Shown here: piece by piece, positions 15,608-51,760 of the stretch
How positions within the stretch are numbered: the stretch's first letter is position 1
Layout of the letters: every line of letters starts with the position of its first letter
NCBI RefSeq assembly: GCF_044324875.1
Contig: NZ_CP172185.1
Direction: 5' to 3' (one strand)
DNA: 64,000 nucleotides
Origin: Escherichia coli
GTDB taxonomy: Bacteria > Pseudomonadota > Gammaproteobacteria > Enterobacterales > Enterobacteriaceae
Notes under the pieces: model-generated
What the model was told of the DNA's origin: nothing
The model's input: only the letters and a program-made list of their open reading frames with translations
Databases searched by the model: none
Program-made: the position numbers and the translations under genes

Positions 15608-15646
15608 GCCGGATAATATAAAAAGTTATCCGGCAAATTATTTTTT
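15608..15646 (+). terminator. Intrinsic terminator after yggM
   Basis: GCCGGATAA/TTATCCGGC hairpin followed by a T-rich run. Confidence 0.55.
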
Positions 15647-16946
15647 ACATTAGCCCTAGTAGCTGTGGAATGAACAAGGATATTTGCGGGATGTAAGTGA
15701 TCATCATCAACGCGATTAACAATGCGGCATAAAATGGCAGCAATGGTTTGATCAAATGTTGAATCTTCACACCTGAAATAGAACAACCAACAAATAGCGC
15801 ACTACCCACCGGCGGTGTTAACAGCCCAATACAAAGGTTAGCCACCATCATAATACCGAAATGTACCGGATCCATTCCCAGCTCTTGTGCAATCGGCAAG
15901 AAGATTGGTGTGAAGATTAGTACAGCCGGTGTCATGTCCATAAAGATGCCGACAATTAATAAGACGATATTAATCAGCAGCAATATGATCAGTGGGTTAT
16001 CAGAAATCCCCATCAACGCGTCGCTGATCATATAAGGAATATCAGCATTGGTCATTGACCAGGACATGCCCACGGAAAAACCGATCAACAGTAATACAAT
16101 CGAAGTGGTAACAACCGATTCCAGAATCAGTTTGGGTAAATCGCGCCATTTTACTTCCCGGTAAATCAGCACCGAGAGAATAAATGTGTAGACAACGGCA
16201 ATCGCAGACGCTTCAGTTGCGGTAAAAATGCCGCCCAGAATGCCGCCCATTACAATGAACACCAGAAGCAAACTTGGTAAGGCATCCAGAAACGCTTTAC
16301 AGGCCTGAGCAAAGGTTGCTCTTTCTGAAAGTGGGTAGCCACGGCGTTTAGCAATAATGCCGCAGACTATCATTACCGCAAGACCCATTAAGATCCCTGG
16401 CAAATATCCCGCCATAAATAACGATGCTACAGAAACGCCGCCAGCTGTCAGGGAAAACACAATTAACACGTTTGAGGGCGGTATCAGTAATCCAGTAATA
16501 CAGGATGAGACGTTTACAGCGGTAGAAAATGCCGGATCATAACCTTCTTTGGTCTGAATGGGATTCAGTGTGCCACCAACGGCAGCAGCTGCCGCAACGG
16601 CTGAACCAGAAATGGAACCAAACATCATATTCGCCAGGACGTTCACATGACCAAGCGAACCAGGAACGCGGCCAACCATTACCTGGGCGAGGTTAATCAA
16701 ACGTATCGCAATACCGCCGCTGTTCATCAGCGTTCCGGCAAAGATGAAAAAGGGGATTGCCAACAGGGCAAAGTTATCCAGTCCATTAGCCAGTCGCTGC
16801 GAAACAGTGATTGCCGCGATATCCCAGGGAAACATCAAAAGCATTGAAGCTACAGTGGCAATACCGATTGAGAACGAAATGGGCACACCAATAAAGACCA
16901 GCACAAAAAAACAGCCAAACAGTGTAAGCGCGATATAACTATCCAT
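15645..16946 (-). CDS. TRAP transporter large permease subunit (DctM family)
   Basis: 433-aa polytopic membrane protein with DctM-like sequence; start overlaps the upstream dctQ-like stop (TAATG). Confidence 0.85.
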   Translation of the reverse strand: MDSYIALTLFGCFFVLVFIGVPISFSIGIATVASMLLMFPWDIAAITVSQRLANGLDNFALLAIPFFIFAGTLMNSGGIAIRLINLAQVMVGRVPGSLGHVNVLANMMFGSISGSAVAAAAAVGGTLNPIQTKEGYDPAFSTAVNVSSCITGLLIPPSNVLIVFSLTAGGVSVASLFMAGYLPGILMGLAVMIVCGIIAKRRGYPLSERATFAQACKAFLDALPSLLLVFIVMGGILGGIFTATEASAIAVVYTFILSVLIYREVKWRDLPKLILESVVTTSIVLLLIGFSVGMSWSMTNADIPYMISDALMGISDNPLIILLLINIVLLIVGIFMDMTPAVLIFTPIFLPIAQELGMDPVHFGIMMVANLCIGLLTPPVGSALFVGCSISGVKIQHLIKPLLPFYAALLIALMMITYIPQISLFIPQLLGLM

Positions 16947-17458
16947 TAACTGGCCTCCTGCGCAGGTTGTTTCAGTTGTTGAATGCTTTGATTAATAAAA
17001 CACAAGGCATAAAACATCATCACCAATCCACTTAATGGCAGAATGATATATACGTATCCCATCGGTATTTGCATCGCGGCAGATACCTGTGATGTTGCCA
17101 GTGTTTTATCAATTAATTTCAGGCCACCAGTCACAATGACCGAACCGGCAAAACCTAAAATAAGAACGTTAATGACTATACTAAGAAGTAATTGCTTGCG
17201 CTTATTCAGGGCGAGAGCAAATAAATCGATAGAGAGATGTCTCTGCGCGCCGACGGTATATGCAGCACCTAATAATCCTACCCAGATCATCAAAAAGCGT
17301 GCTAGCTCATCGGTTAATGTACTTGGCTGGTTAAGTACGTAGCGGCTAAATACTTGCCAGACTACGCATACAACCAGAGCAAGCATTACGGCGACAGAAA
17401 ACGCGGCAATGACGCGGTCTACCGCAAGTTTCAGGCGGTTAAATATCATTGTAAGCAT
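16946..17458 (-). CDS. TRAP transporter small permease subunit (DctQ family)
   Basis: 170-aa four-helix membrane protein lying between the SBP and large permease genes. Confidence 0.8.
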   Translation of the reverse strand: MLTMIFNRLKLAVDRVIAAFSVAVMLALVVCVVWQVFSRYVLNQPSTLTDELARFLMIWVGLLGAAYTVGAQRHLSIDLFALALNKRKQLLLSIVINVLILGFAGSVIVTGGLKLIDKTLATSQVSAAMQIPMGYVYIILPLSGLVMMFYALCFINQSIQQLKQPAQEAS

Positions 17459-17493
17459 CCTGGAAAATCAGGGCCAGAGACTGGCCCGGAATA

Positions 17494-18480
17494 TTATTGA
17501 GCAGCGTTGTCGAATTTCTCTAACAAAGCAGCTTGTTTTGGATCTTTTTTGAAGTCGTCAAACAGAGGCTGAACTGCGGCACGGAATGGGGCTTTATCAA
17601 CCTTAACGATTTCACCACCCATGGCTTTCGCCTGAGCACGTGTGTCAGCGTCAATTTTTTCCCACAATTTTTGTTGATAAGCTTCGGATTTCTTCGCCGC
17701 TGTTTCGAGGATTTGTTGCTGTTCTGGGGTTAATTTATTCCATGTTTTGGTGGAGATAACCAAAAAGTCAGGAATTGAGGCATGTTCATCTTCAGAAAAG
17801 ACTTTGGCAATTTCGATATGTCGAGTCTGCACCCAAGAAGGCACGTTATTTTCTGCGCCGTCTACTACACCTTGCTGCATCGCAGTATAAACTTCGCCAA
17901 ATGAAATTGGAGTGGGTGAGCCCCCCATCAGTTCAATCATTTTGATGGTGGTCGGGCTTGGCTGAACACGAATTTTCAGCCCTTTAAGATCTTCTGGCTT
18001 AGTAATCGGTTTTTTCGCATAGAAACTGCGTGTACCCGCTACATAAGCTGATAAAGCAAAAAAGCCTTTATCTTTTGTTGAATCCATAATTTCTTTACCA
18101 ACTTCACCAAAAACCACTTTGTTGAAGTGCGCCTGATCTTTAAATAAGAACGGCAAATTATAGATAGCATAAATATTATCAAAAGACTCCAGATCACTGG
18201 CGGAACCTTTGGTCATATCCAGTGCACCATTTTGCAACAACTCCATAGTTTCTCGCGCATTACCCATCTGGCTGCTGGGGTAAATACGGATCACCATATT
18301 ACCTTTTGACAGCTGTTTTACTTCTTTCGCCAGCTCTTCAAAACTCTGATGTACAACATGACTTCTTTCCAGGTTGTGTGCTAACTTTAACGTCACTTTT
18401 TCTGCGGCGTTTACGCCAGTGCTAACCAGAGCCAGCAAGGATGCGCAGACTAATGAGCGGGTAAATGACCTCATTTTCAT
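17494..18480 (-). CDS. TRAP transporter periplasmic solute-binding protein (DctP family)
   Basis: Signal peptide plus DctP-like sequence (GTRSFYAKKPI, QGVVDGAEN). Confidence 0.85.
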   Translation of the reverse strand: MKMRSFTRSLVCASLLALVSTGVNAAEKVTLKLAHNLERSHVVHQSFEELAKEVKQLSKGNMVIRIYPSSQMGNARETMELLQNGALDMTKGSASDLESFDNIYAIYNLPFLFKDQAHFNKVVFGEVGKEIMDSTKDKGFFALSAYVAGTRSFYAKKPITKPEDLKGLKIRVQPSPTTIKMIELMGGSPTPISFGEVYTAMQQGVVDGAENNVPSWVQTRHIEIAKVFSEDEHASIPDFLVISTKTWNKLTPEQQQILETAAKKSEAYQQKLWEKIDADTRAQAKAMGGEIVKVDKAPFRAAVQPLFDDFKKDPKQAALLEKFDNAAQ

Positions 18481-49049: not shown

Positions 49050-49925
<876 letters not shown>

Positions 49926-49966
49926 TCATGTAAAGCGCCCATGAAGTTCATGGGCGCACTACCAAT

Positions 49967-51010
49967 TTAACGCATTGTTTCATCGAGTATATTGGCAACT
50001 TTTTGCATGACTTCCCCGGCTTTCTCCACGCCTTCCTTATTTTGCTTTTCTACCCACTGTGCTTGTTCTTGCTGATAACCGATCGCTTTCTGCCAGGCGT
50101 CCAGCCCTGATTTTTTCAGATAGCGAACCTGTGCACCTTCCTGCTCAAGCGTTTTTACCATGCTGATCAGGTTGTTATCTAATGCCTTGCCCAGTGCTTT
50201 CTCGGTTGTAATGGCAGCTCGTTGAATAGCCTCACGATCTCTGTTATCAAGGTTTTCCCACGATTGTTTATTCATTACCAACAGATAAACATGACCAAGC
50301 CAGAGAGAAGGTGAGAGCAACACATTCGGCGCAGCACGTTCAGCATGGATGTCATATCCGCTATCGAGATTGACCATTAAACCATCCAGTTTTCCATCCA
50401 TGAGTGCTTTAGTTATTTGATCATTCCACGGTAAAGTTACGGTTTTTGCCCCCGTATGAGTTAAATAAGCCCGATGCCAGAAACTGGCTGTTCGCCAGGT
50501 GGTTCCCTGAAGCGCAGTCAATTTATCAATGGGCCTGGTAGAGAAAAAGCCTACCGGGTAGCCAAGGAAAAACTGTAAATTCACGATATTGTTACGCTCA
50601 AGTTCAGCGTTAAATTCGGGAATTTCCGCATATACGCGACGAAAGAATTCTACCTGACTGGCTCCATGATCCGGGCCAATAGCAAAGCTCTTGAAGATTT
50701 GATGAAGCGGCAATTGTTTCGCGGTGTATTCCGGCACCACTATACCCATATCAGCTTTGCTGCCATCGCTTATTGTCGTCAGAGCGTCATAGCTGATGGC
50801 GGTTTCACCGTTCCAGTGTGGTTCGATTTTCAAACGCCCCTGCGACTCTTTTTCAATTTCTGCAAAAAATATCTCTTTAATTATTTGTGTACGCATTCCC
50901 CCGTAGGGTTCATGGTCTGTATAACGAAGAATTTTTTCAGCAGCAAAAATCGAGGGAGATAACAGAAGAAATCCTGATAAAAGAAAGGGGAGTAATTGTC
51001 GGTAGTGCAT
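49967..51010 (-). CDS. Orphan periplasmic solute-binding protein, DctP (TRAP) family, 347 aa
   Basis: Signal peptide; aligns by eye with the dctP-like protein at 17494-18480 (WRTAS vs GTRSF, LMDGKLDG vs QQGVVDG, LVMNKQSWENL vs LVISTKTWNKL). No permease genes adjacent. Confidence 0.7.
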   Translation of the reverse strand: MHYRQLLPFLLSGFLLLSPSIFAAEKILRYTDHEPYGGMRTQIIKEIFFAEIEKESQGRLKIEPHWNGETAISYDALTTISDGSKADMGIVVPEYTAKQLPLHQIFKSFAIGPDHGASQVEFFRRVYAEIPEFNAELERNNIVNLQFFLGYPVGFFSTRPIDKLTALQGTTWRTASFWHRAYLTHTGAKTVTLPWNDQITKALMDGKLDGLMVNLDSGYDIHAERAAPNVLLSPSLWLGHVYLLVMNKQSWENLDNRDREAIQRAAITTEKALGKALDNNLISMVKTLEQEGAQVRYLKKSGLDAWQKAIGYQQEQAQWVEKQNKEGVEKAGEVMQKVANILDETMR

Positions 51011-51125
51011 ATCTGTTCCTTCAGTTTATTAATTCAACTTATACTATATTAATTTTATCAATTATCCCTAATGTTATTCCTGCGCTATAGTCTGCGCATC
51101 AGATAATTAGCCCGGAATTAATTAC

Positions 51126-51760
51126 GTGATATCTTATTACTTTCAAGGTCTTGCACTTGGGGCGGCTATGATCCTACCGCTCGGTCCACAAAATGCTTTT
51201 GTGATGAATCAGGGCATACGTCGTCAGTACCACATTATGATTGCCTTACTTTGTGCTATCAGCGATTTGGTCCTGATTTGCGCCGGGATTTTTGGTGGCA
51301 GTGCGTTATTGATGCAGTCGCCGTGGTTGCTGGCGCTGGTCACCTGGGGCGGCGTAGCCTTCTTGCTGTGGTATGGTTTTGGCGCTTTTAAAACAGCATG
51401 AGCAGTAATATTGAGTTAGCCAGCGCCGAAGTCATGAAGCAAGGCAGATGGAAAATTATCGCCACCATGTTGGCAGTGACCTGGCTGAATCCGCATGTTT
51501 ACCTCGATACTTTTGTTGTTCTGGGCAGCCTTGGCGGGCAACTTGATGTGGAACCAAAACGTTGGTTTGCGCTCGGGACAATTAGCGCTTCTTTCCTGTG
51601 GTTCTTTGGTCTGGCTCTTCTCGCTGCCTGGCTGGCACCGCGTCTGCGCACGGCAAAAGCACAGCGCATTATCAATCTGGTTGTGGGATGTGTTATGTGG
51701 TTTATTGCCTTGCAGCTGGCGAGAGACGGTATTGCTCATGCACAAGCCTTGTTCAGTTAG
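51126..51760 (+). pseudogene. argO: Arginine exporter ArgO (LysE family), disrupted by a 1-bp frameshift at about 51397
   Basis: Two overlapping ORFs (91 aa ending ..GFGAFKTA, then [12 protein letters not shown].. of 120 aa) together reconstitute 211-aa ArgO; junction reads GCATGAGC where GCAATGAGC would keep the frame. Confidence 0.7.

Follow-up and report, generated by a model that had tools for sequence, protein, structure and literature searches.

A DctP-type binding-protein gene between mscS and argO in Escherichia coli and its solitary clade

This work finds that a DctP-like substrate-binding protein (SBP) of 347 aa, encoded alone between mscS and argO in a 64,000-nucleotide stretch of Escherichia coli DNA (contig NZ_CP172185.1; hereafter the window), is one member of an entirely solitary clade, its orphan status being a property of the clade and not of local permease loss. 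We propose, with a probability of about one half, that it is a stand-alone periplasmic carboxylate-capture protein without a dedicated TRAP permease. The existence of the gene is already known, since public databases catalogue and name it; what appears undescribed in the literature searched is the solitary state of the entire clade, the conserved site of the gene in Enterobacteriaceae, and the fusion of the domain to hydrolases or FMN-binding modules elsewhere. The same searches brought up no work on this gene, on solitary clades of DctP proteins or on fusions of DctP to enzymes.

The locus between mscS and argO

The whole interval from the mscS stop to the argO start spans 49926-51125 and is larger than the SBP ORF, which occupies 49967-51010 on the minus strand and is the sole long ORF there in the ORF list of the window; the coordinates of the first-pass annotation are those of the whole interval, and the 347-aa protein divergent from argO that it described is this ORF. 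The ORF is convergent with mscS (49050-49925, plus strand) and divergent from argO (plus strand, start at 51126), from which it is separated by 115 bp (51011-51125) holding the argO control block and an AAGGA ribosome-binding site ahead of the SBP-gene ATG. Between the stop codons of mscS and the SBP gene lies a perfect hairpin at 49935-49957 with an 11-bp stem (GCGCCCATGAA-G-TTCATGGGCGC), which folds with an MFE of -20.1 kcal/mol (z -5.6; 0/200 shuffles fold equally well) and is likely a bidirectional terminator for both genes; a simple terminator scan did not call it, because it has no long T run.

Alignment of the divergent spacers revealed a block, with the pattern TTATTAgT…ATTAAtATTATCAATTTCCgCTAATGA…TATAGTCTG, that is conserved across 25 loci from all genera and in E. 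coli without the SBP gene, and that we take to be the ArgP/Lrp-bound control region of argO. In the window this block runs from TTATTAAT at 51026 to about 51095, with a -10-like TATAGT at 51086-51091, and it is kept, not displaced. The SBP start codon lies just 15 bp from the edge of the block, and therefore the SBP promoter must overlap it; a simple sigma-70 promoter scan of the 115-bp spacer gave no site for the SBP gene. From this arrangement, co-regulation of the SBP gene with argO would be possible. The argO gene of the window (51126-51760, plus strand) is itself broken into ORFs of 91 and 120 aa by a 1-bp deletion near 51398, which is shared by 0 of 5419 complete E. coli genomes.

The SBP gene is present in 216 of 5426 complete E. 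coli genomes (4.0%), SMS-3-5 and O145:H28 strains among them, always chromosomal and single-copy, with 156 copies at least 99% identical; each carrier genome among the matches listed has it annotated as an intact CDS. A 2.8-kb query of mscS, the SBP gene and argO matched 5425 of the 5426 genomes, over most of its length in 195, and the exact protein was found on at least 1000 contigs. In strain C4 the 2.8-kb region is 99.4% identical in DNA to the window and the mature parts of the two SBPs are identical; its protein, WP_000559340.1, carries the RefSeq product name "C4-dicarboxylate TRAP transporter substrate-binding protein". As had been stated in the first-pass annotation, mscS and argO are direct neighbours in K-12, which is seen in MG1655 and in other genomes without the SBP gene, and with about 96% of complete genomes lacking it the gene is not a conserved component of typical E. 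coli.

Compared by BLASTN with a genome without the gene, the accessory segment covers 49903-51047, i.e. 1145 bp in place of 68 bp of K-12-like spacer. Its left breakpoint falls within the last mscS codons, and for this reason MscS of the window has an altered tail and 291 aa, versus 286 aa in genomes without the SBP gene; this variant C-terminal tail travels with the SBP gene. The GC content of the segment is only mildly lower (0.39-0.46), and its listed ORFs showed neither transposase nor repeats. Moreover, the SBP gene sits between mscS and argO in at least ten genera of Enterobacteriaceae (26 loci, 25 with full flanks), namely in E. marmotae, E. whittamii and another Escherichia, and in Superficieibacter, Yokenella, Enterobacter, Huaxiibacter, Citrobacter, Lelliottia, Silvania, Kluyvera and Klebsiella spallanzanii. 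Because at least ten genera have the gene at this site, the locus is an old accessory locus, which most E. coli lack, and not an insertion; together with the mild GC drop and the lack of transposase or repeats, this rules out a recent mobile-element insertion. The survey of the mscS-argO spacer thus upholds the accessory character of the gene in E. coli, but not the earlier picture of an insertion.

The SBP and its flanks differ in their affinities. The Escherichia SBP shares 73-81% identity with its counterparts in Superficieibacter and the MAG UBA5654 and just 56-59% with that of Citrobacter, whereas MscS behaves in the opposite way (81-84% on the Superficieibacter/UBA5654 side, 91-93% on the Citrobacter side), and the variant MscS tail is common to the window and the Superficieibacter/UBA5654 group. 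Given this discordance with the flanking genes, homologous recombination in the conserved flanks has probably served to exchange the cassette, which E. coli may either have lost widely or have regained. Two allele types of the locus occur in Escherichia, that of the window with the 115-bp spacer to argO and a longer one with a different signal peptide and an extra 309-aa gene upstream of the SBP gene, the latter gene being present in E. marmotae and some E. coli. This 309-aa protein has no match in Pfam, NCBIfam or PDB, and the searches of these collections gave no support to a DUF1963-like resemblance. The signal-peptide part of the SBP differs between E. coli alleles, and with a dN/dS of 0.12-0.25 across Escherichia alleles the gene is under purifying selection. 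A functional tie of the SBP to mscS or argO was rejected, as their adjacency is restricted to Enterobacteriaceae and no MscS or LysE neighbour recurs elsewhere.

Fold, binding site and solitary clade

Several comparisons place the protein in the DctP family, as had been claimed at first pass. It matches Pfam DctP (PF03480) with E 2.2e-17 and 63.8 bits (cut-off 23.4), over residues 48-310 and profile positions 18-275 of 286, and scores 54.9 bits on NCBIfam TRAP_S1, just over the cut-off of 50; on the dctP subfamily model TIGR00787 it reaches 16.7 bits, far under the cut-off of 175. An AlphaFold2 model built from a 50-sequence alignment (pLDDT 92.5, pTM 0.87) retrieved by Foldseek against the PDB a set of which the best 50 listed are all TRAP SBPs (TM 0.67-0.85, 14-22% identity), and on the strength of this model we are confident that the predicted fold is the two-lobed TRAP-SBP (DctP) fold, in which two alpha/beta lobes are joined by a hinge and followed by a long C-terminal helix. 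The periplasmic location proposed earlier also accords with the N-terminus, where residues 1-23 (50942-51010, minus strand; MHYRQLLPFLLSGFLLLSPSIFA followed by AEK) read by eye as a Sec signal peptide, having a positive N-region, a hydrophobic core and a cleavage site between IFA and A. An N-terminal signal is found in every family member, and those of the alphaproteobacterial ones look Tat-type (SRRLFL).

The candidate carboxylate clamp is R173 (codon 50492-50494, minus strand, checked in the sequence), within the motif GTTWRTASFWH. This Arg, whose conservation had been singled out for checking, is invariant in 50 of 50 family sequences and aligns with the Arg of 4nap/4pgn and, by hhalign, with R147 of SiaP, the sequence used for the latter being identical to PDB 2cex. 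An Arg at the SiaP R147 position occurs in 96.8% of DctP SBPs and serves as a carboxylate selectivity filter (PMC4646407); since R173 matches this conserved Arg, a carboxylate ligand is a reasonable expectation, and the SBP would bind it through R173. Forty-one columns are invariant across the 50 family members, including D32, H33, R40, W66, E94, Y95, Q104, K107, W172 and R173, as well as S176, W178, H179, N214, D216, S217, W237, H240 and Y242. The other invariant residues may line the cleft, because their positions correspond to loops after beta-strands; N214 is off by one column from SiaP N187 in hhalign.

Among characterized proteins, the best matches are TarP, the TRAP SBPs for lignin-derived aromatic acids (7NR2, 7NRA, 7NTD), and Dde_0634 of Desulfovibrio alaskensis (4NAP, 4PGN), with TarP_Sse, in its cinnamate and coumarate complexes, and Dde_0634 leading the Foldseek results and the same proteins coming first by profile search (Foldseek E about 3e-20, TM 0.73-0.85; profile E 6e-20 to 8e-17). 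They resemble the SBP in the two-lobed fold and the position of the Arg, yet share just 18-22% identity with it, and unlike them the SBP clade has no DctQM. By entry titles TarP_Sse binds coumarate and cinnamate, and TarP_Csal ferulate; by the same token the best PDB relatives, at 18-22% identity, bind aromatic acids or pyroglutamate, and the RefSeq name of the SBP gets no support from the tests run here and looks generic. SiaP of Haemophilus influenzae, the reference DctP-type SBP, has the same fold and the equivalent of R173 in R147, but is about 18% identical and its R127 has no counterpart in the SBP. SiaP is encoded with siaQM and required for transport.

The window carries a TRAP operon of its own at 15645-18480, all on the minus strand (DctP 17494-18480, DctQ 16946-17458, DctM 15645-16946), between a DUF1202 gene (yggM in RefSeq) and a radical-SAM/HemN-like gene (hemW in RefSeq). 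This is the only DctQ/DctM pair in the window, lies 32 kb away and has its own SBP, and no DctQ or DctM gene neighbours the orphan, which is in line with the earlier statement that the orphan has no permease partners. The operon's SBP scores 283.8 bits on Pfam DctP versus 63.8 for the orphan, and the two members of this Pfam family share 20% identity (BLASTP E 0.003), bearing out the distant relation that had been supposed. The operon occurs in 1489 of 5426 complete E. coli genomes (27%), seven times the frequency of the orphan and mostly without it, while in the orphan-positive O145:H28 RM13516 and 2018-05-2CC, which belong to other lineages, hemW adjoins yggM with no TRAP operon there; because of these two carriers the orphan and the operon are independent. 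The low identity, the unequal frequency and the two carriers without the operon together led us to reject the orphan as a partner of the nearby operon.

Solitude extends across the family. A scan of one genome per species gave 80 family loci, 43-100% identical to the query SBP, from Enterobacterales, Rhizobiales, Rhodobacterales, Synergistaceae, Bacteroidales, Fibrobacter and others. When 89 family loci (1.47 Mb) were searched with DctM and DctQ queries from the window and two other sources, DctM was found in just two (L057, L066), a count that covers the stored locus flanks and hence speaks of absence nearby, not of absence from the genome; as a positive control, the same query picked up DctM in a sister-clade locus with E 4e-29. 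In a HMMER search of 1.84 billion representatives, four or five scored over 400 bits before a drop to 244 bits, and this nearest full-length relative outside the family lies in a DctP-DctQ-DctM operon. With the sister clade in a DctPQM operon and the family solitary, descent from canonical TRAP receptors follows, the permease link having been lost at the origin of the clade. An unbiased neighbour search of all family loci likewise found no conserved membrane-protein neighbour common to different taxa.

Orphan TRAP SBPs are known to exist, although most TRAP SBPs by far are operonic with a permease (PMC12344293), and two known cases resemble ours in part. The orphan TTT proteins, such as Bordetella Bug and AdpC of Rhodopseudomonas palustris, bind carboxylates in the periplasm and have no nearby membrane component (PMC5812351), but they belong to the unrelated family TctC (PF03401) and represent a lineage-specific expansion, whereas the SBP forms a single-copy, cross-phylum clade. 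BP0403 TAXI-GltS of Bordetella pertussis is a TRAP-type SBP of non-canonical architecture and also has no TRAP membrane partner (PMC12344293); it differs in being of the TAXI subfamily and in an extra domain bridging to a GltS permease, a conserved membrane partner of a kind that was not found among the SBP family loci.

Enzyme fusions and candidate functions

In Synergistaceae MAGs the DctP-like domain makes up the C-terminal end of secreted proteins with several domains, the junction lying directly at its first strand (…LTYSDHEP…). It is fused to a carboxylesterase type B domain (COesterase) in L076 and L089, which are full-length and also have an N-terminal FMN_bind region, and in L063, which ends at the contig end; to Abhydrolase_1 in L079 and L082; and to tandem FMN_bind modules in L060, L081, L090 and P0123. 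A metagenome protein (P0127) combines a metallo-beta-lactamase fold and a Cu_amine_oxidN1 domain with the DctP-like domain. Neighbours at the Synergistaceae loci comprise a CocE/NonD-type hydrolase, Amidohydro_2, a secreted nitroreductase-like protein, an aldo/keto reductase and MarR; a secreted esterase lies downstream in one Bacteroidia locus and a lipoprotein-type Amidohydro_2 in another MAG, and where Enterobacterales carry the gene at sites other than mscS-argO, its neighbours on the same strand are diverse small-molecule enzymes, namely SnoaL_4, PhzF, GST, SDR and GFO_IDH_MocA. The recurring theme is suggestive of periplasmic chemistry on small molecules of ester or aromatic type, not of transport. 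The evidence for this enzyme link derives from MAGs belonging to distant phyla, with 43-49% identity, of which the fusions show 46-49%; the Enterobacteriaceae loci have no conserved enzyme neighbour, and the surroundings of the E. coli gene show nothing like the fusions.

In nine Rahnella loci the family gene follows a TonB-dependent receptor, and the annotated cluster of one of them (L009) also has FecCD-type ABC genes. An iron or siderophore role was set aside, since the arrangement is found in this one genus and the cluster carries its own Peripla_BP_2 binding protein.

The stand-alone capture role is suggested by the fusion of the same domain, elsewhere, to secreted esterases, an MBL-fold hydrolase and FMN-binding modules. 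First, the SBP would be exported via Sec to the periplasm, where it would most likely close around one specific organic acid, the carboxylate being held by the invariant R173 in a predicted pocket with lining residues that are nearly invariant across the family. Upon binding, it may hold the acid or hand it over in the periplasm as a free-standing capture module. The acid may be aromatic or phenolic, released from esters; this guess at the ligand class is a weak one, because the Foldseek scores for TarP and Dde_0634 barely top those of other TRAP SBPs. In its broadest form, and as a tentative possibility, the cross-phylum clade would have left transport to capture small molecules for extracytoplasmic enzymes, as a free-standing protein in Proteobacteria and Bacteroidales and as a fused domain in Synergistaceae, or would itself be catalytic.

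The strongest competitor, which we nonetheless consider unlikely, is that the SBP acts as a conventional TRAP receptor in trans, handing its ligand over to DctQM components whose genes lie elsewhere, a mode of action already proposed for orphan Bug/TTT proteins. E. coli has further TRAP membrane components, yiaMN, so that the use of these, or of the pair in the operon at 15645-17458, would be possible. The derivation of the family from canonical TRAP SBPs and the retained Arg clamp suit such a role, as does the Enterobacillus locus L057, where a complete TRAP operon lies divergent beside the family member; however, 87 of the 89 loci have no DctM nearby, and the two orphan-positive E. coli named above lack the accessory TRAP operon. 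Orphan TTT SBPs that share few permeases offer a precedent (PMC5812351), but a TRAP SBP normally shares an operon with its permease (PMC12344293), and the C-terminal placement of the domain in large secreted Synergistaceae enzymes fits permease docking poorly.

The first-pass annotation remarked that orphan SBPs can serve other transporters or signalling, and some SBPs do stimulate sensor kinases or chemoreceptors (PMC8050422); no conserved signalling link emerged here. A role as periplasmic co-sensor, in which the ligand-bound SBP would dock on a sensor kinase, a chemoreceptor or another signalling protein, is accordingly rather improbable. It draws on four alphaproteobacterial loci where the family gene is divergent from an OmpR-type regulator and a HAMP/HisKA kinase, but the conserved neighbours at the Enterobacteriaceae, Bacteroidales and Synergistaceae loci do not include signalling genes. 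Moreover, the regulators near family genes vary by taxon (TetR, PadR, LysR, AraC, MarR or the OmpR/HisKA pair), which is rather the pattern of a regulated target.

It is doubtful, still more than the co-sensor role, that the SBP fold has turned enzyme, acting as a hydrolase, lyase or isomerase on a carboxylate in the manner of other enzymes derived from binding proteins. The unusually dense invariant polar set (D32, H33, E94, Y95, K107, R173, S176, H179, N214, D216, S217 and H240) could be read in this way, but such strong pocket conservation is equally expected from one shared ligand, and no catalytic motif can be recognised. The fusion or proximity of the domain to several different hydrolases also speaks for an enzyme; to our knowledge, no enzyme of the TRAP-SBP fold has been described. 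Finally, a decaying, functionless remnant of a lost TRAP operon, which might be thought of for a gene missing from 96% of E. coli beside an argO frameshifted in the window, is strongly disfavoured, being contradicted by selection and conservation: dN/dS is 0.12-0.25, the CDS is intact in every listed carrier, identity across phyla is 43-60% with 41 invariant columns, and at least ten genera have the gene at the same site.

Significance for E. coli and for DctP-type proteins

For E. coli itself, the SBP gene is a minor accessory gene, tightly divergent from the ArgP-controlled argO promoter. For the family the consequences could be wider, as TRAP SBPs are usually read as a proxy for the substrate of a transporter, and a clade without permeases would be mis-annotated everywhere. 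DctP and TAXI SBPs have been stated to consist solely of the two-lobed unit (PMC12344293); if the clade has indeed left transport to serve enzymes, or is itself catalytic, DctP-type proteins would gain a functional class and a domain architecture that are both new. A capture module for periplasmic esterases or reductases would widen the known uses of SBP folds, and would point to a so far unrecognised acid, perhaps plant- or diet-derived, handled alike by some gut Enterobacteriaceae, rumen Synergistaceae and Bacteroidales.

Alterations in mscS and argO and the longer SBP allele

In Escherichia carrying the SBP gene, MscS is 291 aa long with a variant C-terminal tail, encoded in the window at 49903-49925 and also found at family loci L004 and L016-L019 of other genomes, while the K-12-type protein has 286 aa and ends in ...KEDKAA. 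This variant tail is similar to the MscS tails of Superficieibacter and UBA5654, a likeness that probably marks a recombination breakpoint falling inside mscS. On the other flank, argO (51126-51760) is broken near 51398 by a 1-bp deletion, the missing base being the G in the context ...AACAGC-ATGAGC..., and it is thereby left as ORFs of 91 aa and 120 aa. No other case of this deletion occurs among 5419 complete E. coli genomes, in which the closest argO match has 98.8% identity with one gap; either the arginine exporter has been inactivated by a private mutation or the missing base is a sequencing error.

A gene for a 309-aa protein precedes the SBP gene by 55 bp, in the same orientation, in E. 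marmotae and in the longer E. coli allele (5017-5946 in L004; 3566-4496 in L003, where it is frameshifted); in strain SCU-316 it is split over two frames. Its product has no signal peptide and gave zero matches to Pfam, NCBIfam and PDB, and the signal peptide of the SBP itself differs where the 309-aa gene is present.

Export signals, neighbours and labels across the family

The signal peptides of the enterobacterial family members are Sec-type in appearance; twin-arginine-type signals (…SRRLFLATAAGAA…) are found on the alphaproteobacterial members and one 'Pantoea' member (L058, L059, L064, L070, L075 and L077).

At nine Rahnella loci (L009, L042-L054), the family gene follows a TonB-dependent receptor gene of the same orientation at a distance of about 210 bp. 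In L009, which is annotated, the receptor cluster includes SIP/FAD_binding_9, FecCD-type ABC and Peripla_BP_2 genes, and from this gene content it looks like an iron-uptake cluster; the adjacency is restricted to one genus and may therefore reflect no more than synteny. At L085, L086, L080 and L066, which belong to Bacteroidales, Fibrobacter and one Rhizobium, the family gene is followed, within distances of 25 bp to 1.2 kb, by a gene for a hexapeptide protein of the maltose-O-acetyltransferase type (Pfam Mac and Hexapep).

Two public records (L013; L025) carry taxon labels that look wrong, judging from their sequences: a 1.4-kb contig assigned to a 'Collinsella sp.' MAG matches the window's SBP gene and flanks at 100% identity, and a 'Chryseobacterium sp. 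18061' contig has the complete enterobacterial synteny mscS-SBP-argO-yggE.

Complete TRAP operons in the window and beside a family member

In the window, the DUF1202 gene yggM is separated from hemW, a radical-SAM HemN-like gene, by an inserted and complete accessory TRAP operon (15645-18480, minus strand; DctP 17494-18480, DctQ 16946-17458, DctM 15645-16946). Of 5426 complete E. coli genomes, 1489 carry this operon. In Enterobacillus tribolii (L057, 6523-11014), a complete canonical TRAP operon, including its own DctP, is divergent from the adjoining family gene, and this is the sole family locus with such a neighbour. L057 could serve as a natural test case for the use of a permease in trans by a family member.
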